Source of the DNA: Malacoraja senta
Taxonomy: Eukaryota
Assembly: GCA_038087875.1 (NCBI GenBank)
Contig: CM075992.1
Span: 11,720,001 to 11,784,000 of the forward strand
DNA length: 64,000 nt
Direction: 5' to 3'
Shown in pieces: positions 1-48,603 of the stretch. The notes under the pieces were generated by a model. The model was not told where the DNA came from. It worked only from the letters and a program-made list of their open reading frames with translations, and searched no databases. Each line of letters starts with the position of its first letter. Within the stretch, counting starts at the first letter, position 1. Position numbers and translations under genes: made by a program.

Positions 1-2190
1 ATACAATGCTTTAAATTGCCATAATTGACTCATCCAGTTAAATTTTAAATATCTATGATTATTACCATATACAGCCACACAGTAATATGCATCTTAAGAT
101 CTATGCTAGCCATATAGCATTTTCTTGAAATTGGCTGTATAGTATTGGCAAAACTCCAAAAAACTGTTTTTTATACTGTACAAAAAAGGGTTAAGACTTG
201 TCAGATCTAGAATAATTCTACACCTACCATCCTTATTTGCTCTAATAAATCACTTGGCATAAATTGGTGGTGATGGAGAACTGACTTCTTAATTATCCCT
301 TTTAGACAATATTTCATGTTCTGCCTCAATCTGCATATTCTCTTATTTTGAGAAATATGTGTCCGGTTTGAAATATGCTGAGTAGGAGAATCCAAATATG
401 GGTAGAATTCAATTCGAAACCCGACAATACTGCACAGTATAAATACATCAGATTGCCATTCTTTTAGGAAGAATTGTAATCTTCCTCAACTTGTAAGTGT
501 AAAACATTAATATGTCTCTTACAGAACCAGACCCCCTACCTCAGGGTTTGCCTATGGCAATTGTTATCTCCTGATCTTAGTGGAATATTGTAACCTCCAC
601 ATACCTCAGGAGGAGTGCCCCAATAACGCAAATATGGGAAAGACCGATTTGATCCTTCACTGTCCCCAGTCACCACACATTGGTAGGAAAAACTCCCTAT
701 GATTTGATCTGCCAATCACCGACAGCTTCATCGAGGTCTTTTACACTTTTTTGGCTAGATTCTTTCCAAAAAAAGATTTTAGGCAATTAAATATTAGATG
801 GTTTACAGAGCCCGCAAACTTAAGATATATGTTAGGTCTTATAGCACTTTTATAAATACAGTTTATTTGAAAGTACGCACTACTCATGAGTGCTAAGTCA
901 ACCTTGTTGTGATACAGATACGTGCTCTCCATCCTGGCCAAAGCCGTAATGCCTGACCAGCAATTTCAACACCCTCTGTCATTTTTTTTTCCACCGCTGA
1001 GACTGCTTGCAGTGCTCAATACTGCGGGTTTCATATTTTTTGACAGCTCATGCATGGTCAGAACCTGGAGCTGCTGGGAGAGCAAGTAATTTATTGACAT
1101 TGCTAATTTATATCCCATTGGTTCCCCTGATAGTTTTGGAACCACAAATGTTATATATTGTGCCAAACCTGGTCCTTTAGGCTCCGTTATTGGGCTCTGG
1201 TCCTCATATGATACGTCTCTGAATCTTTGCGTAAAATAATCCTCCTCATGGAGGGAGAGAATTGGCATCCTGCTTCAGGCGTTTCTAGCGCTGGCTCTCC
1301 CATAGGCCTACGCATAGTAAACCCTTTCCCAGGTGCTCGCCGCGCGGGCTCTCCTGTAGGCCCATGCATAGGCAGCCCTCTTTCAGGTGCTGCTGGCGCT
1401 GGCTCACCTGTAGGCCAACGCTTAAACTGTCTTTCTCCAGACATAGTTGGCGCTGGCTCTCCTGTAGACCAACGCATACAAATGCTCTTATCCAGGCATT
1501 GCTTACGCTGGCTCTCCTGTAGGCAAGCGCTGAGTCGGACCTTTCCAAGTACTCCCTGCGCTGGCTCTCCCTTAGGCCAATGCTGAGCCGGACCTTCATG
1601 CGCTGGCTCTCCTATAGGCCAACGCTAAGCCCGGACCTTCCCCAGGCATTCCCAGTGCTGGCTCTCCTATAGGCCAACGCTAAGCCCGGACCTTCCCCAG
1701 GCATTCCCTGTGCTGGCTCTCCCAACGCGGACCCGAATAGACAAAATGTCTGCCCGAGTCGGGGATCCTCCTGTCTGACTCCTCAGAGTCTACTGGCCAC
1801 CCGGCCTTTTGTCTCTTGCGCCCGAATGGCGCTACAACGGTATATTTTTTAACCGTATTTTAAAAGTCGATGGCCTTGCTGCCACCAACTCCTCAAAAGG
1901 GTGCCCGCTACTTGCAGACCCGCGGTCTTTCTCGAGTTTATCTGCGGTACTTGGGCCTCTAACATCCTTTCTCCATTCTGACTTGTGTTGTTCCAACTAC
2001 AAGTTCTCTGAAGAAAGTGACCTGAAAAACGTAAGTAAACACTTACCTTCAGGCTTTTTACTTCCCGGTTTGGAGGAGCTCTGCTCACTCCAAACACACG
2101 GTCGCTGCGCTATGCGTCTGTCGATATGATGCGTGTGCGGCTGGACGGGCTCTTCTTCACGTAGTCACTCACGTGACTCCGAAGTAAAAT
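1..2190 (-). mobile_element. DIRS1-like retrotransposon copy C (5' part, decayed, runs off the window)
   Basis: Terminus ctccgaagtaaAAT (2188-2190) matches the other DIRS copies; collinear with 39079-41234; gag and RT remnants. Confidence 0.9.
1288..1728. repeat. Minisatellite in the DIRS gag region, about 9 units of 42-56 bp
   Basis: Recurring core GCGCTGGCTCTCCTRTAGGCC; encodes repeated PxGEPAP on the minus strand. Confidence 0.85.
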
Positions 2191-2251: not shown

Positions 2252-5200
2252 TAGAAACATAGAAACATAGAAAGTAGGTGCGAGAGTAGACCACCAGGCC
2301 CATCGAGCCCGCACCGCCATTCGCTCATGGCTGAACACTAAACAGACACCCTTACCCACAAACAGTAGACACAAGACACAGAACACAAGACACTACCCTC
2401 CCCTTTATATCGCTATCACCCCTCTCCACCCCAAGAACCGCGTGATCTCCTGGGGAGGCAAAAAAACGGATAAAAACCCAGGTCCAATTCGGGAAAAAAA
2501 TCCGGGAAATTCCTCTCCGACCCCAATCCAGGCGATCGACACTTGTCCAGGAGATCACTCAGGTCTTACTATACTAACCATACCTAGGTCCATATCCCTG
2601 CCCTCTCCCCGTAGCCCCTTATCCCCTTGGCAGCTAAAAAACCATCTATTTTAGACTTAAATATATTTAATGTTTCTGCTTCCACTGCTCCCTGGGGCAG
2701 TGAATTCCATAAATTAACCACCCTCTGGGTGAAGAAGTTCTTCCTCATCTCAGTTTTAAAAGAGCCCCCTCTTATTCTACAACTATGTCCCCTAGTTCTA
2801 GTTTCCCCGATCATTGGGAACATCCTCGGTGCATCCACCCGATCAAGGCCCCTCACGATCTTATATGTTTCAATGAGATCGCCTCTCATTCTTCTAAACT
2901 CCAAAGAGTAGAGTTCCAGCCTACTTAACCTTTCCTCATATGTCAATCCCCTCATTGCAGGAATTAATCTTGTAAACCTTCGCTGCACTGCCTCCAGGGC
3001 CAGTACATCCTTTCTTAAGTATGGACCCCAGAACTGTACACAGTATTCCAAATGTGGTCTCACTAATACTGTGTACAGCTGCAGCAAGACCTCCGTGTTT
3101 TTATACTCAATCCCCCTAGCAATAAAGGCCAAAACTCCATTGGCCTTCCTGATTGCTTGCTGCACCTGCATACTAACTTTTAGTGATTCATGTACTACTA
3201 CCCCTAGATCCCTTTGCGTTGCATTACAACGCAGCTCCACCTCATTTAGAAAATAACTTGCCCTATCATTTTTTTCCCCAAAGTGAATGACTTCACATTT
3301 ATTAGTATTAAATTTCATCTGCCAAGTTGTTGCCCACTCACCTAGCTTATCTATATCCTTTTGCAGACTCTTCCTATCCTCCTCATCCCCTACTTTTCCT
3401 CCCATTTTTGTATCGTCCGCAAATTTTGATATATTACACTTGGTTCCCTCCTCCAAATCATTTATATAAATTGTGAACAACTGGGGTCCCAGCACCGACC
3501 CTTGCGGAACCCCGCTAGTTACCAGTTGCCATCCCGAGTATGAACCATTTATCCCCACTCTCTGCTTCCTATTTGTTAGCCAATCCTCTACCCATGCTAA
3601 TATATTACCCCCAATCCCATAATTTTTTATTTTTAGCAATAGTCTCTTATGTGGCACCTTGTCAAAAGCCTTTTGGAAGTCCAAGTATACCACATCCACC
3701 GGTTCCCCTTTATCCACCCGGGTTGTTACTTCCTCAAAGAATTCGAGCAGATTCGTTAAACAGGACTTCCCCTTCACAAAACCATGCTGGTTCTGTCCGA
3801 TGAAGTCATGTTTATCCAAGTGCCCCGTTAGTGTTTCTTTAATAATTGTCTCTAACATTTTACCCACCACCGATGTTAGACTAACCGGTCTATAGTTACC
3901 CGCCTTCTGTTTACTTCCTTTTTTAAATATAGGTGTTACATTGGCCATTTTCCAATCCACTGGGACCGTTCCTGCCTCCAGGGAGTTTTGGAAAATTATC
4001 ACCAATGCATCCACAATCCCCACCGCTATCTCCCTCAAGACCTTTGGATGTAATCCATCAGGCCCAGGGGATTTATCCTCCTTCAGTCTCATTAATTTCC
4101 CTAATACCACCTCCTTGGTGATCTTAATATTATTAAGCTCCTCCTTTCCTACCGCCCCCTGTTTATCCAGCGTTGGAATATTTTTTGTGTCTTCTATGGT
4201 GAAGACTGATACAAAATACTCGTTTAATGCCTTTGCCATTTCCATGTTCCCCACCAACAACTCTCCAGTCTCACCCTCCAATGGACCAACGTTCACCTTA
4301 GCTACCCTTTTTCTTTTTATATAGCTATAAAAACTCTTACTATTAGTTTTTATGTTGTTCGCTAAATTCCTTTCATAGTCTATTTTCCCCGTCTTAATTA
4401 ATCTCTTAGTTATTTTTTGCTGACCTTTAAATGCTTCCCAATCCTCTACCCTCCCACTATCTCTGGCTACCTTATATGCCCTTGCCTTCAGCCGAATACT
4501 ATCCTTTATAGTTTTACTGAGCCATGGCTGACTGTTCTTTCCCTTACCCCTTTTTTTCTTCATAGGAATACATTTTTCTTGAAGGTTATACAGTAGATCC
4601 TTAAACGTACACCACTGCTCATGTACCGTCTTATTCTTGAGTCTGCTATCCCAGTCAACTTTGATCAGCTCAGTCCTCATACCTTCATAATCCCCCTTAT
4701 TTAGACTAAGTACCCTAGCCTGAGTTTCAACCTGCTCCCCTTCTATTTGAATATGGAATTCGACCATATTGTGGTCACTTGTTCCCAACGAGTCCCTAAC
4801 TATGACATTTTTAATTAATCCTGCTTCATTACACAGGACCAGATCCAAGATTGCCTCCCCCCTTGTCGGTTCTGTGACATACTGTTCTAGGAACCCGTCT
4901 CTAATACATTCTATAAACTCTTCCTCTAGTCTACCCTGCCCAGTTTGGTTTGCCCAATTAATATGAAAATTGAAGTCCCCCATGATTACAGCAGTTCCCT
5001 TTTTACATGCGTCAACTATTTGCAGATTTATGTTCTGACTAACAGCGTCACAGCTATTTGGAGGTCTATAAATTACACGCACTAGTGTTTTTTTCCCCTT
5101 GTTATTCTCTATCTGTACCCAAGCTGTTTCACTATCCTGATCCTTCAACGCAATATCCTTCCTCTCTATTGCCGTTATTCCCTCCCTTATTAAAAGGGCC

Positions 5201-5495
5201 ACCCCTCCTCCCTTTCTTTCCTGTCTATCTTTTCTAATTGTCGAGTACCCCTCTATATTTAACTCCCAATCCTGATCCCCTTGCAGCCATGTCTCCGTAA
5301 TGGCCACGATATCATAACTATATATACTTAATTGCACCGTTAATTCATTTATCTTATTTCGAATACTCCGTGCATTTAGATACAGCACTTTCAGATGATT
5401 TTTACTACCCTTCCTTTCTGTTTTTGCCCCTTTTACATCTAGAGCTTTATCTTCACACATTCTGGATCCTCCTGTCACATTTTGATTTTCCGTTT
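2252..5495 (-). mobile_element. CR1 LINE with intact ORF2, 5'-truncated before ORF1
   Basis: (TTTCTATG)n tail at 2252-2274; uninterrupted endonuclease plus RT frame. Confidence 0.95.
2584..5460 (-). CDS. CR1 ORF2: APE endonuclease and reverse transcriptase
   Basis: LYLNARS, ITETWL, MGDFN, LDLVL, SDHN (endonuclease); YLDFQKAFDKV, GVPQGSVLGP, FADD (RT). The frame opens at 5547, but the first codons may come from flanking DNA. Confidence 0.93.
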   Translation of the reverse strand: MCEDKALDVKGAKTERKGSKNHLKVLYLNARSIRNKINELTVQLSIYSYDIVAITETWLQGDQDWELNIEGYSTIRKDRQERKGGGVALLIREGITAIERKDIALKDQDSETAWVQIENNKGKKTLVRVIYRPPNSCDAVSQNINLQIVDACKKGTAVIMGDFNFHINWANQTGQGRLEEEFIECIRDGFLEQYVTEPTRGEAILDLVLCNEAGLIKNVIVRDSLGTSDHNMVEFHIQIEGEQVETQARVLSLNKGDYEGMRTELIKVDWDSRLKNKTVHEQWCTFKDLLYNLQEKCIPMKKKRGKGKNSQPWLSKTIKDSIRLKARAYKVARDSGRVEDWEAFKGQQKITKRLIKTGKIDYERNLANNIKTNSKSFYSYIKRKRVAKVNVGPLEGETGELLVGNMEMAKALNEYFVSVFTIEDTKNIPTLDKQGAVGKEELNNIKITKEVVLGKLMRLKEDKSPGPDGLHPKVLREIAVGIVDALVIIFQNSLEAGTVPVDWKMANVTPIFKKGSKQKAGNYRPVSLTSVVGKMLETIIKETLTGHLDKHDFIGQNQHGFVKGKSCLTNLLEFFEEVTTRVDKGEPVDVVYLDFQKAFDKVPHKRLLLKIKNYGIGGNILAWVEDWLTNRKQRVGINGSYSGWQLVTSGVPQGSVLGPQLFTIYINDLEEGTKCNISKFADDTKMGGKVGDEEDRKSLQKDIDKLGEWATTWQMKFNTNKCEVIHFGEKNDRASYFLNEVELRCNATQRDLGVVVHESLKVSMQVQQAIRKANGVLAFIARGIEYKNTEVLLQLYTVLVRPHLEYCVQFWGPYLRKDVLALEAVQRRFTRLIPAMRGLTYEERLSRLELYSLEFRRMRGDLIETYKIVRGLDRVDAPRMFPMIGETRTRGHSCRIRGGSFKTEMRKNFFTQRVVNLWNSLPQGAVEAETLNIFKSKIDGFLAAKGIRGYGERAGIWT

Positions 5496-5902
5496 CCCCA
5501 TATCGGCAGGAAAAATACTGCCGGTTCGTATATTTACATAATGACATTTTCGCAACGTGAAATTTTCATTAAAGGCATCCTTAGAAGCAAGTTTATATAT
5601 AAAATAAACGGCTTTCCTTTACCTGTCCCATACATGAAATCCGTCCCCGTTGTCGGCGTTGACGGCTTTAGAAGATTATTTTTTATTTTCTACTGTTCGT
5701 AAAATATCCAATTTAAAAGAAACTTAATAAAATGGCAGTCGAAGCGATTACTCTTTAGCAGCTGAACAGCCTGACACACAACGATTGAATAGCCTGGAGA
5801 AACAAGGGATTTTAAACCCGCCCCCCTCTCAAAGGCGCAAAAGTCGCGCACACGGGCAGTGACAGAACTGCAGCGCCGCTGAAGGTAGGTTTTCTAACAT
5901 AC
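5496..5902. mobile_element. Probable DNA-transposon terminal fragment
   Basis: CpG-rich and non-coding; ends in TTTTCTAACAT, whose reverse complement ATGTTAGAAAA resembles ATGTTACAAAA starting the element at 17001. Confidence 0.35.
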
Positions 5903-28690: not shown

Positions 28691-29149
28691 TTACCCTCCT
28701 CTAAATCTTTCCCTTCCATGGCATATACATATAGTTATGTTTCCTGCCTCAACTACCTCCTCTGGCAGCTTGTTCCATATACCCACCATCCTCTGTGTAG
28801 AAAAAAATTGCCCTCAGGTTCCTATTGAATGTTTGCCTTCTCACCTTAAACCTATGTCATCTGGTTCTTGATTCCCATATTCTAGATAAAAGACTATGTG
28901 TTCATCCTAATTAAACTCCATTGGTCCACTTACCCAGATGATTATTGACAACCGTATTTACTATATGATACCACCTATTTTAATGGCATCTTCAAACTTC
29001 CTAATCATGCCTTGCATATTCTCATACAAATTGTTAATATAAACTACAAACAGAATGGGCCCCTCATCGATCCGTGAGGCACACACTCCCTGATCATACC
29101 CACAAAACCAATTCTATATCCAGTTAGACTCAAAAGGCTGGGGTAATTT

Positions 29150-33940: not shown

Positions 33941-34313
33941 TCTGGTTCTTGATTCCCCTATGCTAGATAAAATACTATGTACTCATCCTAATTTTACTTC
34001 GGAGTTACGTGAGTGATTACGTCAATCGGCATGCGCGTCATTACATCTGTCGCATGGCGCAGAGACCAGCTCGGAGGACAGAGCTCCTCCAGCGGTAAGT
34101 TTAAAAAGCCTCAGGTAAGTGTTAAACTTAGTGTGAGGTCGGGCTTCTGCGCTTGTTAATTCTTGTTGCAGGAGGTCAAGTCCAAGCATGGAGAAGTCGT
34201 TGCGAGCAAAGCGAGTCGTTTAGAAAATTACCAAGGACCGCGGGATTGCGGGTAGCGGACGTCCGCCTAGCTCATCTACTGAGTCGCCAGTTGTTAAACC
34301 AGCGACCGCAGGC

Positions 34314-35350
34314 TTGGGGTCTGAGGACACCAGGGCTACGCCGGTAGGGCGTAAGGCCACCAGCAATTCTGCACGGCCGATAGACTCGGACGAGTCCGGT
34401 CGGGAAGGTTCTCCTCCAGGAAGAGATACCGTGTATGGGTGGTTATCGACAGTGGAGCACCTGTTGGGGAGGATGCTCCATCAAGAGCACAGGTCTCTCC
34501 AAGAGCCAGCGCCAGCAGCGCCTATTACAGGGCTGCCTAATGTCTCCCTCAAGGAGGAGGTGAGCATTCTGGGTCAGAACAAATCTGACGCCGACTCTGA
34601 GGGGTTAGCATTGGAGGCTGCCCCGAGGGACGAAAGTCATGAGCTGGAGGTCCCATTCCTGGCAGCGAGATTTGCCGTCCTGACAGATTCGGGAGAGCCG
34701 CTGGGTGAGGATTTGGCTGCCACAATAAATTATCTAGCCTCACACCAGCTCCAGGAGCTCACTATGGATGCAACAGCCCGGAGATATGATACACCGGCTA
34801 ATTGTATTTGGCTGAACATGCCAGCAGTAAATCATGCCATCTGGGGCCGCATGGGAGTAGGCATCAGGGCACCGGAGATTAAGTTGCAGAGGGTACTGAA
34901 GCTACTGGCTTCCGGCATTATGGCGTTTGGGAGGTCGGTGGATGGGGGGAACCGGTTTGAGATTCAGCAGGGTGCCCTGGCTCTCATGTGCATTGGGCAC
35001 TTTGAGATAAACTGCCTTAGAAAGAGCGCCATCAGCCCTACGATTAATCCGAAATTCGCTGCCCTCTGTACGCCCAGCAACGTCCAGCCCCCAAATCTTT
35101 TATTTGGAGAACACCTCGCGAAGTGGGTGAAGGAATTGGACGACGAGGCAAAGACTGTGGGGCTCATTAAAGTGCCAATCACCGGCAGACCCGTGCGGAG
35201 GCAGCAGCACTACAAGCGGTTTGCCGAAACCGGGGCCAGGCAAGGACTAAGTCGGCCATTCAATGTGCGCAACTGCCACACTCCTGCAGGAGCACGAACA
35301 ACTATGCCGTTTCCCACCAGAGCCAGGGGACAAAAAACTCCACTGGTAAC
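34314..35350 (+). pseudogene. DIRS gag-like ORF
   Basis: PANC..LNMPAVNHAIW...KLQRVLK...LRKSAISP..NPKF..LC...LLFG; runs in frame into the pol N-terminus. Confidence 0.75.
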
Positions 35351-35351
35351 C

Positions 35352-36209
35352 ATGGAGGTAGGTGGGTCTGGTGCTTGTAGAAACTTATTCAGTGAGAGTT
35401 ACCTACCAACTGGGGGGAGGTTACACTGGTTTCTAAAAGAATGGTATTGGATAACATCCGAATTGTTTATACTGCAAGCGATACAGGGGTTTAAAATTGA
35501 ACTAATTTCTAATTTGTGTCCACCTACACAACATTCACTGAGGAGGGCACTTGTTTTCTCACAAAAAGAGAATTTGGAGGTTCAGGCTGAAATTCAGAAA
35601 TTGTATCTCAAAGGTGTAATTGAAAAGACAGATTGGCAACCTCACCAATTTGTATCTAACATTTTCCTAGACCAAAGACAGATGGTGGTAGTCGGATCAT
35701 TTTGGACCTGATGGACCTTAATCCGTTTGTGCAGTATAGGCATTTCAAGATGGAAACTGTTGCCACTGCCAAGCAATTGGTTTCCAGAGGGTGTTATATG
35801 GCATGTATAGATCTTAAGGATGCATATTACTCAGTGCCTGTTCATAAAGACCAACGGAGGAATTTGAAATTTAGTTGGATGAGGCAGTTGTGGCAAGTTA
35901 AAGCACTGCCTAATGGGTTAACCTCAGCCCCTAGATTATTTACAAAACTGCTGAAACCAGCATTGGGGCTACTCCGGGTTCAAGGTCATATTGTAATGGC
36001 TTATTTAGATGATATCTTAATAATTAGGGAACTCGGGAAGCAGCTGGGTTATCTGTTTCCGCTGTTAAACTCATGTTTGAGAGTCTGGGGTTTCTAAGTC
36101 ATCCAACTAAATCAAATTTGATACCGGTTAAAGTTATTGATTATCTGGGCTTCACAGTTAATTCAACTCACATGTCTGTAACTCTACCCAAGGGCAAGAG
36201 ATTAGATTT
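35352..36209 (+). pseudogene. DIRS reverse transcriptase, 5' part (frameshifted)
   Basis: GGRLHWF, HFKMET, IDLKDAYYSVP, LPNGLTSAPRLFTK, YLDD. Confidence 0.9.
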
Positions 36210-39200
36210 AATAGTAAGATTAAACGAGAACTTACCAGTTTGAGGTTTGATCTTTATTTCATGAGGAGTTACGTTGAGGACGTGAATAACCCGTCCAGAC
36301 CGCACACGCGTCAATCTTCAAAGCAGCGGAATGAAATCACAGACAACAATTACTGAAGTATGATAGTAAGATACGTAAAGACTGGAACTACCAGCTTGAT
36401 CTTTATGAGGGTGGGAGCGGAGGGCACGTAGTCCCTCATCGTAACTCTTCATAAAATAAAGATCAAACCTCAAACTGGTAAGTTCTCATTTAATCTTACT
36501 ATTTTACTTCAGAGTCACGTGAGTGACTGCGTGAAGATTTCAAAGCTCTGTGATTTCACGCCGTAGATTCAAATCCAGGAGCTTACTGCATTGATTGACT
36601 CTAAATAATAAAACAATCAACAATGCACAACCACAACATGGATGCAACCAGTTAATGGTTAATTTATCACCATAATAGTAACCCCTTTATCACAAGAGGA
36701 ATATTTAATACTAAATCCAAAATACCACCACCAAATAACCACAGGTATTATAATCTCCTTATGGTAATACTTTTGAAATTCTTTCACTTATGCCTGCAGC
36801 CGCGAGGATATGTTCTATTAGAACATCCAATTCCTTGGCCATCAATGTTGATGGTGCCCTGGTGAAATAAGATTTAAATTTGTCAGTATCAATACCTGCA
36901 TCAAGCAACACCTGCTTCAGCCATTTTTTAAATAATCTGAACCGACACTTTCTTATGCAGCTATTTATGGCTAATAAAATACTGATACTGAACCTCTTTA
37001 AGGTTCTGGTGGCTTCAATCTAACATAGTAAATGTGATACCACACATAGACGTGGATCCTTAGGATATGCTGAAAACCCCAACTTACATCCTGTGATTCC
37101 AGGTCTACTCTGTTTAAGCAAATCATAGACATAGAACACAATAGTATCTGTTGCTCTTTCCATCATGTCTATTCCTAGTTTCTACAATGTTTGCACTCTC
37201 TGTGCTAAAACCAGTGCCCTGAGCTGGCCCACCTTAATGGTAATTCAAGCCAAGGACAGCACTGTAATAGGAGTCCATTAACGAATCATAACATATCTCT
37301 TACATTCCAGATTATTGTATACCTGTGTCTAGGAGGCTTAGAATTGAAAATTCCTTTCATAAATCTGCAGACCAAAGGGTGTAACCCTACAAGATTTTAT
37401 TCTGATTCCTCCATAGATATGCAGTAAAGGCACTCCTTGCAGTATTCATAGCACTATAGCTTAACTGCTAATAACATAAAGAGTTTACAGAAACTCTAAC
37501 ACTACTGATATGTCTATAGTGTGACATGTAATATTCTGCTTTAAGCAGAATATATCCCATTTCCTTATATAAGAAATGTACTACTTCTGGGTAATATCCC
37601 TCCAGGTTGCAATAATATCCACAGTACAATCTGATAGTCCTCTTCCGATATATGGCACTCCTTAGAATCTGCAAATCAACAAACCAATACGATTATGTAA
37701 AGGATGTGAATCATCAGTTATAGGGTGCACAAACTGATTAATTCTGTTTGGGAAATCATAAGAGGCTTTGTGATCATTTTTAACACCTGAGGGTACCATG
37801 GTTTTGTAGATCCAATCTGGTACCACCAATACTCCCGAAGCAGAGTCCTGTTTGCTCTTCTGTATATACTGTTAAATGAGACAAAATGGAGAAAATGTAT
37901 ACAAACATTCTTCCCCAATGCAGCGAGAAACATCCACCGCTATTGCCCCAGGATCAGGTTTCCATGACATATATTTAGGTAATTGGTTGTTAAGTCTGGA
38001 TACAAACAAGTCATCAATCGTGCAACAATATTATTAAATTTGTCACGATCCAACATCCATTCTGTATTATCATTGATTTACATGACCTTGAGTCTTCAAC
38101 TATATTAAATCTACCTCGTAGGTAGATTGCCAATCAAATATTTCTGGTAAACGCCAGGTCCAGATCACATTAGCCAGTCTAATAAAAGATTCTGACTCAT
38201 ACCACTCGAATGATTAACATACGTTCTATTCCGTAGTGTCAATCTAACCTAAACATGCAAACTTTGCATATAAGAGCAATAAGCTTTAGGCCATAAATGT
38301 TCCTAAAACTTTCATTAATGATCCCTTGTTATTGGATCAAAGGTACTTTCTTCACATTCCATGTTTCTCCACAGCTGGAAATACTTATAAGTATGACCTC
38401 AAATTAGAGCACTACAATTAGTGTGTAGCATAATGGAAGGTGTTCAACCAGAATCTCTCTGGAGGCATTTGAGACACTCCTGATTCATTATAATATTCCA
38501 GTAATAACTACAACCGGCAAATACATGGCCTGGCAAAATTGCCCTAAATTGTATTATCCATTCCTCTATCCATGCTTACTGTAAATGCTGATAATGCAGC
38601 AGTCTAAATTCTACAGCTGAAAATAAGCAATAGTTTGCAAAGTAGGCTTGCTTCCTGCCTAATTAAGGGTTGATGCTCTGTAATGAGCTTAATACAACTT
38701 CCAATTAAATGCCTAATTTAGGGTTGGTGCTCTATAATGAGCTTTATACAATGGTTGGTGCTCTATACTGAGCTTTATACAACTTCCAATTAAATGCAGC
38801 CTTAATCCATAGGCGGAATCACAAACATGTGTTCTCATTTAATGATGGAACCCAAATAATCAATAACTGTGTTTGGTAATTGTTTAGATTTATCTGGATG
38901 GTTAATAAATCTCCAAAGTGAGCTTGATCCTTAACACTCATGGTTCTGTTGTAGTCTGAATGTTTCCTACAACCAGAATATAGAAATAGGCCATTACCAA
39001 ATGGCCCTGAGTTCTTAGTAATGCTAAGAATAGATCCAACAACCTGGCAAATAGTCTCAGGGCTGAGACTAAACCTTAATACAATGCTTTAAATTGCCAT
39101 AATTGACTCATCCAGTTAAAATTAAAAATATCTATTATTATTTACCATATACAGTCACACAGTAAAATGCATTTTCTTGAAATTGGCTGCATAACATTGA

Positions 39201-41234
39201 CAAATGTTACCAACTGTATATTATACTGTACAAAAAAGGGTTAAAACTTGTCAGATCTAGAATAATTCTACACCCACCATCCTTATTTGCTCTCATAACA
39301 TATTTGGCATCAATTGATGGTGATGGTGAACTGACTTCTTAATCATCCCTTTTTCACAATATTTCATGTTTTGTCTGAATCTACATATTCTCTTATTTTG
39401 AGAAATATGTGTCCGGTTTAAAATACCTTAATAAGAGAAACCAAATATGGGTAGAATTATATTCTAAACCCCACAATACTGTACAGTATAAATAACAAAT
39501 TGCCATATTTTAGCAACAATTGTAATCTTTCCCAACTTGTAAGTGTAAAACATTTAATATGTTTCTTACAGAACCAGACCTCCTACCTCAGGGTTTGCCT
39601 ATGGCAATTGTTATCCCCTGATCTCAGTGGAATATTGTAACCTCCACATATCTCAGGAGGAGTGCGCCTACAACGCACATATGGGAAAGACCAATTTGAT
39701 CATTCACTATCCACAGTCACCACATATTGGTTGGGAAAACTGCCTTAATTTGATCTGTCAATCACACAGGTTCATTCCTTTTTTGGCTAGATCTTTCTAA
39801 ACAGATTATTAGGCAATTTCATTATTTGATGGTGTACAGAGCCCCCAAACCTAGGGTATATATTAGGTCTTATAGCACTTTTATAAATACGGTTATTTCA
39901 AAGTGCGCACTACACATGAGTGCTAATTCAACCTTGTTGTGATATAGACACACGCTCTCCATCCAACCTTTGGTCAAAAAGCCATAATGCCTGACCAGTA
40001 ATTTCAATACCCTCTCCCCCGCTGAGACTTGATTATAATGCTCAATACTGTGGGTTTCATATTTGTAGACAGCTCATACCTGGTAACAACCTGGAGCTGC
40101 TGGGAGAGTAAGTATTTTATCGACATAGTTAATTTATCTCCCAATGGTTCTCCTCATATTTTTGGAACCACAACTTTGATATATTGTGCCAATTCTGCTC
40201 CTTTGGGCTCTGTTATTGGGCTCCAGTCCTCATATGATTCATTTACTGAATCTTTGTATGAAATAATCCTCCTCATGGAGGGGTGAATTTACATCCAGCT
40301 TCAGGTGTTTCTAGCGCTGGCTCTCCCATAGGCCTACGCATAGTAAACCCTTCCAGGTGCTCGCCGTGCGGGCTCTCCTGTAGGCCCATGTATAGGCAGC
40401 CCTCTTTCAGGTGCTGCTGGTGCTGGTTCACCTGTAGGCCAACGCTAACTTCCAGATATAGTTGGCGCTGGCTCTCCTGTAGACCAACGCATAAAAAATT
40501 CCTTTAACCAGGCATTGTTCACACTGGCTCACCTGTAGGCCAGCACTGAACCGGACTTTCCCAAATACTCCCTATGCTGGCTCTCCCTTAGGCCAACATT
40601 GAGCCAGACCTTCTAAAGCCCATGCGCTGGCTCTCCTATAGACCAACGCTAAACCCGGAACTCCACCAGGCACTCCCTGCGCTGGCCCTGTAGGGACAAC
40701 GCTAAATCGGACCTTCCCCAAGCACTTCATATGCTGGCTCTCCTCTAGGCCAACGCTAAACCTGGACATTCCCCAGGCATTCCCTGCGCTTCCTCGCAAC
40801 GCGGTTCTAAATATAATAAACTAGCTACCTGAATCGGGGATCCTCCGGTCTATCTTTCTAGTCTACTAGTCACCTCTATTTCTTATGCGCACTAATGGCG
40901 CTACAACATTAAATATCTTTAGCCGTCTTTTAAAATTTAAAAAGGACGCCCGCTACTCACAGACCCCGCTACTCACAGTCTTACTTGAGTTCTCTGAAGT
41001 CCAACTCTAAAACCTTTCTTCATTCTGACTTGTGTTTTCCCCACTAGAAGTCTTCTGAAGAAATCGAACTGAAAAACGTAAGTAAACACTTACCTTCAGG
41101 TTTTTACTTACCGGTTTGGAGGAGCTCTGCTCACTCCAAACACATCGGCACTACGCTATGCATCTGACGATATGACGCATGTGCGGTCTGGACGGGTTCT
41201 TCACGTAGTCACTCACATGACTCCGAAGTAAAAT
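36210..41234 (-). mobile_element. DIRS1-like copy B, decayed ORFs, nested in copy A
   Basis: AAT at 36210-36212 and 41232-41234; ICR junction cttactATTttacttc at 36495-36510; YR, methyltransferase, RT and gag remnants without long ORFs. Confidence 0.93.
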
Positions 41235-42300
41235 TGAGGGCTGTATCAAGCTCATAGCAGAGCAATCACCTTCAATTAGGCATGTGGCCAGCTTGATTGG
41301 CAAATTGGTAGCAGCTTTTCCAGCTGCACATTATGGACCTTTGCATTACCAACACTTACAGAGGTCAAAGGTACAGGCACTAAGGAATCATGCAGGCCAT
41401 TACAGCAGACCCATGCAATTACCTACTGAAGCAATTGCTGAAATTCAATGGTGGATTAGGAACATTTCGGATTGTTCCAGCAAAAATTTGATTGAAGCAC
41501 CTTCAGTTGTTTTACAGACTGACATTAGTGCCCTAGGTTGAGGGGCTACTGATACCATCTCTAGCTGTGGGGGCAGATGGAATGTGCATGAGGCATTTAT
41601 TCTTCAATCACATGGAATTAATTATTTAGAGTTACTGGGAGCATTTTATGGGCTTAAGGCTTATTGTACCACCAAGCATCACTTACATGTTCAGCTTCAG
41701 ATTGACAACACACGGCAGTGGCGTATGTGAATTATATGGGTGGAATCAAGTCGCAATCTTGTGACAGATTGGCTAACCTTATTTTGCATTGGTGCATTAA
41801 AAGAAACATTTGGGTTTCAGCTGTTTACTTGCCGGGCAGGTTCACCATGCTGGCAGACACCAGATCACACAAATTCAATGACAACACAGAATGGATGTTG
41901 AATCATGAAGTATGTAATAATATTGTTGTTCAATATGGGATGCCACATATCAATTTGTTTGCATCCAGACTCAATCACCAGGTGCCAAAGTATGTTTCAT
42001 GGGAACCAGACCTGGGTGCAGTAGCGGTAGACGCTTTCTCGCTACATTGGGGAGGATTGTTTATATATGCATTTCCCCCATTCTGCCTCATCAGTCGGTG
42101 CTTGACTAAAATCAAGCAGGACTCCGCTTCATGAGTTTTGGTGGTGCCCGACTGGCCTACACAGCCATGGTTCCCTCTCATTTCGGACAATATAACTCAG
42201 CTAATTATGGTGGTTCCAACATGTCAACACCTATTGGTAAACCCTGTGACTGGAGATCAACACCTGTTGTATGCTCGTATTAATTTGTTAATTTGCAGGT
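41235..42300 (+). pseudogene. DIRS RT thumb, RNase H and adenine-methyltransferase-like domain
   Basis: LQTDIS..G.GA, INYLELLGA, IDNT, NLFASRLN, DAFSLHW, YAFPPF, VPDWPTQPWFP. Confidence 0.88.
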
Positions 42301-43273
42301 TTAAGGAGGCCATACCTGGGTCTGGGACTATCCAATCGGACCGTGGATATCATCACATCGTCCTGGAGAGATAGTACAAAAAGCAGTATCTCTCTCATGT
42401 CAGGAAGTGGGAGGCGTTTTGCTTAAAAGGGAACATTACTTACCACACAGTTTCCATCCCAGATGTGTTAGAGTTTCTCTCCAAATTGTATTTTGATGAC
42501 GGTCTAAGTCATAGTGCCATCAATACTGCCAGGAGTGCTCTGTCATCGTATTTATGTTTGGGGTCAGAACTAGAGTCTGTAGGATCTCATCCGTTAATAT
42601 TCCGATTTATGAAGGGTGTTTTTAATTCCAATCCCCCCAGGCCTAGATATACAGAAATCTGGGATGTCAGTGTGGTACTCATGCTGTTTCGACAGTGGGG
42701 TCCAGCCACATCCTTGTTTTTGTTAAAGATTACCTTGACGTTGGTTATGCTCATGGCGTTAGTGTCAGTGCAGAGGGTTCAGACTCTGCAGAAATTGAGA
42801 CTGGACAGGATGGTGTCATCTGGGAATGACGTTCTGTTCTACATATATGATCTCATAAAACAGAGCAGACCAGGGGTGTCAGGAGTCAAGCTTCTGCTGT
42901 CACCGTATCCCACAGATTTACGACTGTGTGTGGTGGCGCACTTGTGGTCTTATATTGAGGTCACCAAGGGCCTCAGAGGATCGGAAGTACAATTATTTGT
43001 TAGCCACAAAAAGCCACATGGGAAAGTGTCCGTCCAGACCATCTCAAGATGGCTGAAACAAGTATTGGTTTTGCAGGAGTTAATACTGACAATTTTAAAT
43101 CTCACTCCACCAGGGCGGCATCAACGTCAGCAGCGAGGGCAATGGACGTCCCTCTAGACCATATCCTCGCGGCCGCAGGATGGTCAAATGAACTGACTTT
43201 TCACCGGTTTTATAATAAACCACTTATCGAAACCGGGGTGTTCGCCCATTCTATTTTAAGTTCTGTTTCCTAG
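42300..43273 (+). pseudogene. DIRS tyrosine recombinase (frameshift near 43070)
   Basis: SAINTARSALS, PPRPRY..WDV, QRVQTL (catalytic R), HSTR, AAGWS, FHRFY. Confidence 0.9.
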
Positions 43274-44085
43274 CTTCCCCTGGGAGAGAGGGGTCGCTAT
43301 TGTATTTCTTTATTTGTTTGTGAATTAGAGCAACATGTTAATCTGTACCATGTTTCATTGTATTGCTCATTATTCACTCCTCCTGAGTCAACTGATGCCG
43401 TGTGAGAAACCTGGATTCGTATCTACGGCATGAAATCACAGAGCTTTGTATTCTTCACGGAATCACTCACGTGACTCCGAAGTAAAATAATAAGATTAAA
43501 CGAGAACTTACCAGTTTGAAGTTTGATCTTTATTTTATGAGGAGTTACAATGAGCGATTACGTGCCCACCGCTCCCGGCCCTCAATATTATAAAGGTCAA
43601 CTGGAAGGTCTGTTTTATATTCTTACTACAGTTACGTTTTATCTGTGATTTCACACCGCTGCTTTGAAGATTGACGCGCATGCCGACTAACGGGGTTCTT
43701 CACGTAATCGCTCATCGTAACTCCTCATAAAATAAAGATCAAACTTCAAACTGGTAAGTTCTCATTTAATCTTACTATTAAACTCCATTAATCTTTCCTT
43801 GGTCTACTTACCCGGCTGATTATTGACAGCCTTATTTACTATCTATGATACCACCTATTTTAATGGCATCTTCAAACTTACTAATAATGCCTTGCATATT
43901 TTCTAACAAATTGTTCATATAAACTTCTTCACACTGGTCTCAACCTGAAATGTTACCTATTCCTTCTCTCCAGAGATGCTGCCTGTCCCGCTGCCTGTCT
44001 ATCTTCGGTTTAAACCAGCATCTGCAGTTCCTTCTTACACACTAATGGATTGGTACATTGGGTTGTACACTGGATGATGCACTGG

Positions 44086-47000
44086 ATTTTACTTCGGTCA
44101 CGTGAGTGACTACGTGTAGAAGCCCCGCCAGTTCGCACGCACGTCATTACGTCATCCGCATGGTGAAGCACCGGACTGGCAGGCGCTCGCTCCTGCCAGC
44201 GGTAAGTTTAAACTACAGGTAAGTTTTGTATTTCTTACCTGGTTTTGATTTCTTGCAGGAACCTCTTTTTTACAGAGGTTTCCTGTCCGATATTTCGCGG
44301 AAGGCCGATGAGGGAACCAGCTATGGGCTGTGGGGAGACCCCGGTTCCGACCACGGAAGCGGGTAGCTGGTGAACGTCGGGTTCTCGATCCCAGGCACTG
44401 ACAATACGGTCAGTGACTTCCAGACGCTGTGGTTCCCGGGGAGGGGAAATCCAGCAGCAATGCAGCGCCCAGACCGCAGTGGTCCCCAGGATATGGGGTA
44501 AAACCAACCAGAACGGTCAGCCCTGGTGCCGGGAGGTTCCCCTCCGGTAATGTATAAAATTTGGAGGTTGGCCAGGAAGCAGGAGTTGTGTCAGCGCGGG
44601 CCTATGGGAGAGCCCGCACCAGCAGTGCCTTGGACAGGGCTGCTTCATGTTCATGCCGAGTCTGTGCAATGCTGGGCCTATGGGAGAGCCCGCGCCAGCA
44701 GCGCCTTGGACAGGGCTGCTTAATGTGGATGCCGAGTCTGTGGCAGCTCTGGGCCTATGGGAGAGGCCGCGCCAGCAGCACCTTGTAACAGGGCTACTTA
44801 ATGTCTCCCTCTTAGAGGTGGAGAGCATAGGGGGTCAGTATAAGTCTGACGCCGAGTCTATGCCAGCGCCAGCCTATGGGAGAGGCCGCGCCAGCAGCAC
44901 CTTGTAACAGGGCTGCTTGATGTCTCCCTCTTGGAGGAAGAGAGCATGCCGGGTCAGTGTAAATCTGACGCCGAGTCTGAGGGTTTAGCCATGGAGCATA
45001 CCCCAAGGGATGAAGGGCACATGTCAGAAGTACCATTCCTGGCAGCAAGGTTTTCCATCCCAACACAATGCAGTGAACACCACTATCAGGGGGATATTAG
45101 AGCCAGCCGCCGAATCTTCTATTCAGGTAAGACCTATTCAACAGGCAAAACCTGGAGGACGAAGCACAAGCTGCTGGACCAATCAAGGCCAACGTCAAGC
45201 AAAGCTTCATCGTTTCGGCGACAACGCACCCCACGTATTCATCGGCAGTAAGCGGTTCACTGAAGCTGGTGGCAGCATGAAAGCTGGCCAGAGGTTCCAC
45301 GCACTCTACCAGTTCTACTCTACAGCTATGGGACCACTTACAAGTTAGTAATATTTACACTTGGTTGTACAATACACAAATGGTAAGACATTGTCATCTA
45401 CCTAGAGGCATCTAACCATGTAAACAGGACAATGCTAGCATTCCAAGCAGGTTGGAATTGGGCCAGAATTGCGTTTTGAGGCAGGCTCAGTATTTTGGCC
45501 AGAATTGCCTTCGACACATGCTAGAAATATGGGCAGAGTTGTCTTTCAAGTCAGACTCAGAATTGTGGCCAGAATTGTCTTTCGAGACAGGCTCAGAATT
45601 ATGGCCAGAGTTGTCTTTTAAGACAGGTCAGAATTATCAGATAGGCTCAGTATTATGGCCAGTATCTTGCAAAACAGGATTGGAAATCGGGCCAGAGTTG
45701 TCGTTCAAGGCACGCACGAAATGGTGGTCTGTTCATTATGAAAGATGGCTGATTAACAACTGATTTCATAGGGTATTCCCATTTACAGCGATCATTGGAG
45801 GTGTTTGGAGGAGGCAATTGCTATGATCAGGCAATGATAACAATATGATGACAATATAGCATTCAAAGCGGACTACTCAGAGTTCGAAAACACTTGTCAT
45901 GTCTTGCCTGGATGATATTTTAACGCTGTATTTTGCTAAAATCCACTGTTTCAGTCTCAAACTATATTTGAGAAATTGGGCTCCTCTATCCAGTTAAAAT
46001 TAAGTTGTTACCAAATAGACTTGTTGGTCATTGGGATTTACCTTTAGCTATTAATTGGCCTATGACTCCACCCTGGGCAACAGGTTGGAGTTAATAGAAA
46101 CCTGTAACAGCCTTGTTGTTATAAAGCAGCCTTCTAATCATTAAGACTAATTGGCAATATATTAGCTGTGATTCAGCTGTGCAAATGGGAGAACAGACAT
46201 CATGCTAAATGGCAAACTCTAAAGTGCCATGTAGGTCATTGTTAACACACCTATGCTATTACCAGCTGAAGCTACCAAAGTGACAATGATGGACAAACAG
46301 TATTCAGCATTGCTCCAGTAGTTTGGTCAGTAAACATTTCAGTAATATTGCAAACTGATGCTAATGGCCCTAACGTGGGAAATTGTGAATATCATCTCTA
46401 GTTTGGTGGATGAGATTTGCATGAGTTACCAGTTCTTCAGTTATTGGTATCAACTATCTATAGACCCTATGTGCATTCTATGGGCTAAAGAGTGATTGAG
46501 CGAATATGCATAATCTGCATGCTCAACTTCAGGTTGATACACTATGATGGTGGCATATGTTAGTCACATGGGTGCAATCAAGTAAAAGTATCCTGTAATA
46601 GTGTACCTAATCTCATTTGCCACTGGTGTGTACAGATCAATGACAACACAGAATGGGTGTTGGATCAGAGAGTATTTATGAAATTCTGGTTCAATGGAAC
46701 ACCGAATATCAATATGTTGGTTTTCATGCTTATTCACAGGTTGAAAAAATATGTGGCTTAACAGTGGCGAAAGATACATTCTCGCTATAAGGAGGAGGAA
46801 TGGTCTTTAATGTCTTCCTCCATTTTGCCTCATCAGTCGGGTCTTCAAATAAAGTCATCAAGATCCCGCTTTAGGTTTTTCCTACTGTCTGTTTGGCCTA
46901 TGCAGCTTTGATTCCCGATTTTGTCGGGAATAATAATACAACCTTATACGGTTATTCTAAACGTAACTTTGCAGGTTCAGCCTGTGGCTCGGGAAATCAG

Positions 47001-48446
47001 CCTTTGCATGCTAAAATTAATTTATGTTCTGCAGATTCTGAATAGACTGCCCCTACGGCTTGGGTGTCACACCTATCCTTGTATGTGTTCACTCCAGAGT
47101 GCTGGGATAGCACCAAAAAAGCAGTACATTTCTTCTTCAGGAGATGGGAAGCGTTTTGTTTAATGCTAATGTTACATTTAAAACGTTACAGATTACTGAC
47201 GTCTTGGAGTTCATTTTAAATGGTCTTTTGACAATAATTGACAAACGGGACCCACTCTGTCGGGTTCACCCCCAGATATCAAGTTTGTAAAGGATATCTT
47301 TCACACAAGTTCTCTCAGGACAAGTACAATGCAGTATGGGATATTGACATTGTGTTAACACTATTTCACCAGGGGGCTCCAGCTACATCCTTAGCTTTGG
47401 CCGGCTCTCATTAGGCAGTTATCCTCCTGGCGCTTGTTTTAGCGCAACAGGTTCAGTCGCTACATAATTGCGACGGGACAGGATGATTACATATGTAAAT
47501 AATATATATAATATTTATGCTTATAATTAAATTAAGCAGAGCGGAAGGGGTGTCAGGTCTCAAAATAGATCAAGGCATACCCAGGGACCTTTGGTTATGT
47601 GAGGGCACACATATACGACAATACATCAAGGTCATCAAGAGCCTTCGAGGCTCTGAACTAGCAATGCTTGTTAGTTACAAAAAACTTTATAGGAACGTAT
47701 CTGTTCAGACCATTTCCAGGTGATAAAATTGAGTTTGATTTATGCAGGAGTAGATACTGATTTCCAGATCTCACTCCACCAGGGCTGCTACAAAATCAGC
47801 AGCAAGGGTTATTTACGTTCCGCTGGACCACATCCTAACGGCTGCAGCATGGTCAAACGAACAAATTTCCAAACATTTTATAATAACCCATTGCCAGACC
47901 AGGGGTATTTGTCAACTATATTTTACGTTCTATTTATAGTTTCCATCCGGATGAGAGGTGTTACTATTATTATTACTTCATTTAACAGCATCAGCATGTT
48001 TTAAATCTATGTCATGTCTGTATGCCTTATGAATGTTTCCCTCATCTGTCAATGAAGCAGTTGTGGTTGTGTAGACTCGTTTCTCACGGCATGAGATCAC
48101 AGAGCTTTGAAATCTTCACCTAGTCACTCACGTGACTCCGAAGTAAAATAGTAAGATTAAACGAGAACTTACCAGTTTGAAGTTAGATATTTATTTTATG
48201 AGGAGTTACGATGAGGGATTACGTGCCCTCCGCTGCCAACCCTCATAAAAGTCATCTGGTAATTCTAGTCTTCTCTAAATCTTACTATGTCACTTCAATT
48301 ACTGTTATCTGTGATTTCACACCGCTGCTTTGAAGATTGACGTGCGTGTGGGCTGGCGGGGCTTCTTCACGTAATCCCTCATCGTAACTACTCATAAAAT
48401 AAAGATCAAACTTCAAATTGGTAAGTTCTCATTTAATCTTACTATG
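44086..48446 (+). mobile_element. DIRS1-like copy D, decayed ORFs, intact ends
   Basis: Starts ATTttacttcgg; ICR at about 48113-48225; ends aatcttactATG; YR remnant SVQTISR. Confidence 0.92.
45455..45710. repeat. About 33-36 bp tandem repeat inside DIRS copy D
   Basis: ggccagaRttgtcttt...caggctcag units, about 7 copies. Confidence 0.8.
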
Positions 48447-48603
48447 ATACACTGGACCATTATGCTGTCGGGGCCAAAGAGTAGCATATGTTGAATGCAG
48501 TAATGAACAGTGATGTGGCTCACTGCCCATCCTGGTGTCGTGCACCAAGGCCTGTTCCTGAGTGAGATCACCAGGAGAAGTGGACACCATTTTCTTCACC
48601 TAC

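Follow-up and report, generated by a model that had tools for sequence, protein, structure and literature searches.

We examined a 64,000-nucleotide (nt) stretch of the Malacoraja senta (Eukaryota) genome (NCBI GenBank assembly GCA_038087875.1, contig CM075992.1, positions 11,720,001 to 11,784,000 of the forward strand), hereafter the window, whose first letter is position 1. It holds four DIRS1-like retrotransposon copies, A to D, which together make up 25.5% of its length (Table 1). One of them, B, lies full-length inside the pol gene of another, A, on the opposite strand. We describe here the letters at the two boundaries of B, the state of the same site where it is uninterrupted, and the condition in which B most likely arrived. 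Copy C is a decayed neighbour that starts 306 nt past the end of A (43779-44086), and copy D is a relative of B whose 5′ flank differs from that of B.

Anatomy of the four copies

The sense-strand 5′ ends of all four copies, including those of C (44086) and D (2190), read ATTTTACTTCGG; at their 3′ ends A and B read TCTTACTATT, and C terminates in ATG. Alignment of the left against the right inverted terminal repeat (ITR) gave 45 matching columns out of 63 in A, 38 out of 42 in B and 43 out of 51 in C. In each of the three complete copies (A, B and C), the internal complementary region (ICR) joins the element's 3′ end to its 5′ end through a single ATT and is complementary to both ends, with the overlap lying on that 3-base-pair (bp) junction. 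The A ICR agrees with the 3′ end of B at 93% over 69 nt and the last 370 nt of the two copies agree at 83%, against 66% in the interior. Expanded tandem units occupy the 5′ gag region of B (40314-40790), D (1288-1723) and C (44589-45060).

The alignment of copy A with a full pol, at 48%, extends to the last residues of that pol, and PF05869 or PF12237 occurs in several homologues of the A reverse transcriptase (RT). We take the right part of A pol to comprise the RT connection, RNase H and methyltransferase-like regions, named here from motifs; A itself gave no RNase H match in Pfam and only a weak one to PF12237 (E 0.04). By this presumed assignment, B sits after the RT core and before the RNase H-like region. 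The tyrosine recombinase (YR) of A has an Integrase SAM-like domain at E 9e-5, short of the Pfam cut-off, and 103 homologues, most of them with PF00589; one match, in Leucoraja erinacea, reaches 65% over half of the YR.

Table 1 Coordinates of the DIRS1-like copies, their parts and the sites discussed (window positions).
Feature	Coordinates	Strand	Remarks
Copy A, outer, DIRS1-like	33991..43779	+	4767 nt minus B; ATT/ATT ends
Copy B, inner, DIRS1-like	36210..41234	-	5025 nt, full length; every open reading frame broken
Copy C, decayed neighbour	44086..48446	+	ATT start, ATG end
Copy D, relative of B	1..2190	-	88% over aligned columns; truncated by window edge
AAT core, B 3′ end (ATT on B strand)	36210..36212	+	sequence
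AAT core, B 5′ end	41232..41234	+	sequence
A gag (by position; no Pfam match)	34224..35711	+	open frame into first ~85 pol codons
A pol, left part, RT core	35412..36210	+	Pfam RVT_1 E 2.5e-13; frameshifts near 35665, 36033
A pol, right part	41233..42299	+	stops 41541, 42134; frameshift near 41714
A tyrosine recombinase	42301..43264	+	59% identical to P0122 (PF00589); HSTR kept; 2 frameshifts
A ICR	43454..43564	+	core 43486-43488
B ICR	36434..36537	-	circle-junction core 36501-36503
B YR remnant	36749..37655	-	7 stops, 6 frameshifts; HxxR = YFTR
B pol remnant	37668..39400	-	15 stops (7 within insertions), 14 frameshifts; tandem duplication 38665-38797
B gag remnant	39799..40153	-	tandem repeats upstream, ~40314-40790
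Uninterrupted paralogue of A's target repeat	28858..29045	+	single ATT 28910-28912; flanks exact both sides

Boundaries of copy B and the uninterrupted site

The stretch shared by A and B at their boundaries is exactly 3 nt, and the adjoining letters differ on either side; the two AAT triplets that the initial annotation had given as the limits of B were confirmed to the base. Across the insertion, the left frame of A closes with TTA at 36208-36210 (peptide tail TLPKGKRLDL) and the right frame opens with ATT at 41233-41235 (peptide head IEGCIKLI), in frame with the open reading frame (ORF) 41221-41541, and both codons are native to the window. The further claim, that removal of B restores the host pol frame exactly, stands for the local phase but not for the gene, in which A pol keeps three frameshifts and two stops elsewhere.

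Uninterrupted copies of family A carry neither an extra nor a missing base at this site. Contigs of four public runs from three studies (including X3, X5, X6 and X7) were aligned on 35200-42400 at 85% likeness, and every run contains a joint in which 36209 is followed by 41232, so that 5022 nt are skipped and three letters fit either side. Per run, 2, 1, 1 and 1 contigs bear the joint, and the shorter sides measure 27, 45, 63 and 44 nt; of these, 27 nt falls below the 31-letter bridging rule of the tool, which flagged all joints as 'between: not known'. X6 also has two nearby variant joints, skipping 5021 and 5055 nt (one contig each), which we read as variant copies. At the protein level, each flank peptide was aligned on its own to the best 120 of 1071 homologues. 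Both were anchored in 113 of these, where the offset between them was zero in 109, +1 in three and +2 in one, and a second anchor gave zero offset in 96 of 103. The closest homologue among the matches listed, P0001, reads KRLELIEGCMKL across the site, and in a frameshift-aware alignment to P0005 the left flank stops at residue 286 and the right begins at residue 287. A profile search returned 2185 matches, and the junction was concordant in both of those examined, P0001 and P0224; a word-indexed search with the right flank gave no match among 112 candidates. Copy C has a single AAT (46093-46095) at the homologous site, within a noisy alignment. The observation is real and base-precise, and it withstood the refuting condition on extra or missing bases that the initial annotation had named.

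Copy B itself was rejected as an uninterrupted control, as it carries a tandem duplication at the homologous spot (the left flank ends at 38789 and the right aligns from 38706). The duplication, at 38665-38797, begins a few bases from the homologue of B's own insertion site in A, which is probably a coincidence.

Coding decay of copy B and competing explanations

The longest stop-free sense run in B is 89 amino acids, its RT aligns at 37-44% through the lesions, and its recombinase reads YFTR where that of A has HSTR. Per aligned codon, B has 29 lesions in 504 (pol) and 13 in 301 (YR), against 5 in 623 and 2 in 321 in A. For the two genes together this is 42 in 805 against 7 in 944 (ratio 7.0, p 9e-9), and leaving out the seven stops inside insertions lowers B to 35 in 805, about sixfold over A by hand calculation. 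Mismatches between terminus and ICR are as frequent in B (7 of 107) as in A (6 of 114; p 0.78). The GC fraction of B pol is 0.35, against 0.40-0.43 in A. Differences between B and D fall evenly over the codon positions (14/14/14 in pol, 40/28/32 overall); those between A and B show a third-position excess of 1.4-1.7-fold. At the B frameshift at 38075, an extra base occurs in 17% (X6) and 5% (X7) of contig depth, and at the other listed B indels the share of depth differing from B ranges from 6% to 71%, a pattern that fits subfamilies accumulating lesions. The B interior at 39538-40983 is near-uncovered in X3 and X5 (depth 0-83) and covered in X6 and X7; B might be lineage-restricted, with the caution that absent contig cover is not evidence.

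Because B lies inside A, it is no older than A at this locus. The younger copy nevertheless has six- to sevenfold more lesions, with its termini and ICR equally preserved, and B was therefore most likely inserted already coding-dead and mobilised in trans, as judged from these sequence comparisons. The nesting argument is independent of the indels of B and D, common or private, and of the termini as a clock, and it assumes that A has not been refreshed by conversion. The likeness of the cis signals in A and B, both between the A ICR and the B 3′ end and over the last 370 nt, would allow such trans-mobilisation.

Several observations weigh against this reading. Both A/B junctions are unspanned among the contigs listed for the four runs, so that the nested arrangement rests on the assembly. 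At 38246 and 41100, 71% and 59% of the X6 depth is unlike B, and short contigs under-report indels. Over ~1.2 kb, B has 16 private indels and D has 4, and part of the damage is for that reason specific to the B branch. B and D have 18 indels in common, 14 of which are not divisible by three. Of these 14, four fall where gag meets pol, one adjoins a deletion found in B alone, and nine cancel one another out in four sets, leaving a stop-free gag frame to ~35240. In pol, a common -1/-2 pair restores the phase, scrambling ~13 residues. The common indels were dropped as proof of a dead ancestor, since they compensate, and translation of the B-D ancestor may have persisted. Selection acts on the termini and ICR, and they are of little use as a clock. 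No intact helper was seen within the window, where the A family is only the most intact in view.

The private indels of B and the AT-richness of its pol are what one would expect had B been intact on arrival, with the contrast arising later through gene conversion that refreshed A or through faster decay of B. This course of events, however, needs a six- to sevenfold gap in rate within one locus, and the termini and ICR of B have decayed no faster than those of A; moreover, at least one B frameshift is present in most of the contig depth, and we regard an intact arrival as unlikely. The old interior damage would also be accounted for if a decayed B had been excised by a YR as a DNA circle and reinserted without reverse transcription, a route that predicts the same ATT/ATT ends. 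Yet the ICR, which according to the accessible part of PMC7192593 is required solely for the reverse-transcription route, is as intact in B as in A, and the many related contigs that cover the whole B interior in X6 and X7 fit copying, which makes excision quite improbable.

We think it very improbable that the damage in B, or the nest itself, is an artefact of assembly or polishing. The unbridged junctions would agree with such an origin, as would copy C, where most lesions are 1-2-nt deletions of a type that long-read error can produce (13 frameshifts and one stop in its YR), but both breakpoints fall exactly at element termini with a common core, many of the B stops come from substitutions, and contig pieces match the B interior closely (5 differences in 173 nt and 9 in 146 nt). 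It is hardly credible that a staggered cut produced the two ATT triplets as a classical target-site duplication of 3 bp: the 3-nt direct repeat around A and B and the single-copy empty sites would suit one, but the ATT lies within the ICR junction in A, B and C alike, every one of the four 5′ ends is ATT and the two cores of C are unlike.

Some lesions recur between copies. A -1 offset stands at one pol position, in a T-run, in A (35665), B (39294) and D (247), with A and B/D being separate families, and the called ORF of P0001 likewise starts just upstream of this site; the offset may be a slippage hotspot or a programmed shift. Both A (41714) and C (46543) are frameshifted at one reference residue, where an extra base is seen in only roughly one quarter to one third of the depth, and family A may thus also be spreading with lesions. 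One reference Trp codon (P0005 residue 389) is a stop in both A (41541) and B (38399).

Integration model, precedents and meaning

We consider it likely that a dead B lineage inserted into an older copy A via a YR, in trans. In this explanation B would be a DIRS1-like retrotransposon copy integrated into A, where a YR would have joined the ATT of the B circle junction to an ATT in A pol, so that B came to have an ATT at either end and nothing else was altered. The B lineage would by then have been without coding capacity for pol and YR, its RNA being copied and inserted in trans by the proteins of an intact DIRS element. Such putative helper proteins would recognise termini and an ICR that differ little between the families of A, B and C. 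With its single ATT, the ICR junction is consistent with a circle core recombining with a target core, and the initial annotation's proposal of a base-precise nested insertion of the YR type is in this respect supported. What that annotation took as established about DIRS1 integration applies in part: the short shared core and the absence of any other duplication are seen here, but the route through a circle and a recombinase is a model. As far as the accessible text of each source goes, that model has the 3-bp junction recombine with an identical genomic triplet (PMC3266345), and work on DIRS-1 found the ICR to be essential, yet the complementary DNA to be mostly linear and single-stranded, with no amplification of the circle junction and the specificity of the YR uninvestigated (PMC7192593). 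A circular double-stranded intermediate is a model, unproven even for DIRS-1.

A and B have ATT at both ends and empty sites with a single ATT. C, with its ATT and ATG ends, interrupts a 12-nt tandem repeat (44065-44088 and 48444-48458) whose unit ends in GGATG, with ATT on the left and ATG on the right. The unlike cores and the GGATG unit together suggest an origin in the element for the left (5′) core and in the target for the right (3′) core, although a later point mutation could also explain the difference. Together with the ICR junctions and the empty paralogue of A's target, this anatomy agrees with the published recombination model. The right flank of A has 11 extra nt (43790-43800) relative to the empty-site paralogue, 10 nt past the core.

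DIRS-in-DIRS nesting and ATT ends are already in print, and the event is of a known kind. In 1984, Cappello reportedly saw DIRS-1 inserting into DIRS-1 in Dictyostelium. In the name DIRS-N1, the N stands for non-autonomous. The accessible part of PMC3266345 gives DIRS1-like elements of 4-6 kb with ITRs, two ICRs that overlap on a 3-bp circular junction, NTT ends (ATT being the commonest) and the order gag-RT/RNase H-methyltransferase-YR. With the RNase H and methyltransferase-like regions as presumed above, the window copies show no difference from this anatomy, and several elements tabulated there have a start that matches the junction and an end that differs, as in copy C. Unlike these published elements, the window copies are decayed, and the B lineage appears to spread without coding capacity. 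TTT termini are described for Xenopus (PMC9210276, in part). Nests in which one DIRS copy likewise lies within another are described for Dictyostelium (PMC5633606) and asserted for zebrafish (PMC5941688) in the accessible portions of those sources; by comparison, host and guest families are here ~66% identical and the core is just 3 nt. Closest to the proposed movement in trans through retained terminal signals, likened by description alone from partial texts, are TOC1 of Chlamydomonas, a non-autonomous DIRS-order element (10.1101/2022.06.16.496473), and the zebrafish 'DIRS-N1', which appears by name in PMC5400779; B retains a full-length, colinear but ruined gag-pol-YR interior, which may set it apart from both. 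On the amplification of full-length dead DIRS elements or on skate DIRS, the partial listings of the literature yielded only TOC1 and the name DIRS-N1, and the accessible part of PMC8498967 yielded nothing. No description of a DIRS1 lineage that is full-length but ruined, and dated by its nesting, came up in these searches, although the papers of Goodwin and Poulter, Repbase or supplements may describe one. Scans for the terminal motif, in metagenome contigs and viral contigs, gave no matches.

Nested copies number one in four, and A has 233 ATT/AAT sites; a single nesting event cannot show an insertion preference, and nothing here shows homing to a site. Sequence past the 5′ terminus agrees at 0.36 only over 209 contigs (X3), and the A-ATT-AAA around the core, common to A and B and absent at C, was recognised post hoc. 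Local clustering of DIRS elements is possible, as seen in one selected window. The window also contains an intact-looking ORF at 2584-5565 (minus strand; 993 amino acids, endonuclease and RT) of the long interspersed nuclear element type, presumably CR1/L2, with many fragments elsewhere in the window. Gypsy/DIRS1 elements make up 2.5-3.7% of batoid genomes, according to the accessible part of 10.64898/2026.10.27.761883.

The nest holds no new mechanism. Its insertion documents the DIRS integration model cleanly in a natural setting, the core being present once in the ICR, once in the empty site and twice afterwards, and copy C hints at the source of each core. The nest further orders events without a clock and, if B did arrive dead, shows that even a ruined copy remains mobile, with the termini and ICR indicated as sufficient cis signals. 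Mobile ruined copies would, if this is true, bias age estimates and counts of 'degenerate copies' for vertebrate DIRS elements. A wider picture, which we offer tentatively and with somewhat more doubt than conviction, is that of a full-length, coding-dead B lineage copied serially, gaining lesions between rounds and parasitising the proteins of the different family A, with DIRS elements piling up locally. Were it true, such nests would date helper against parasite and delimit the smallest set of cis signals that YR retrotransposition needs in a vertebrate.

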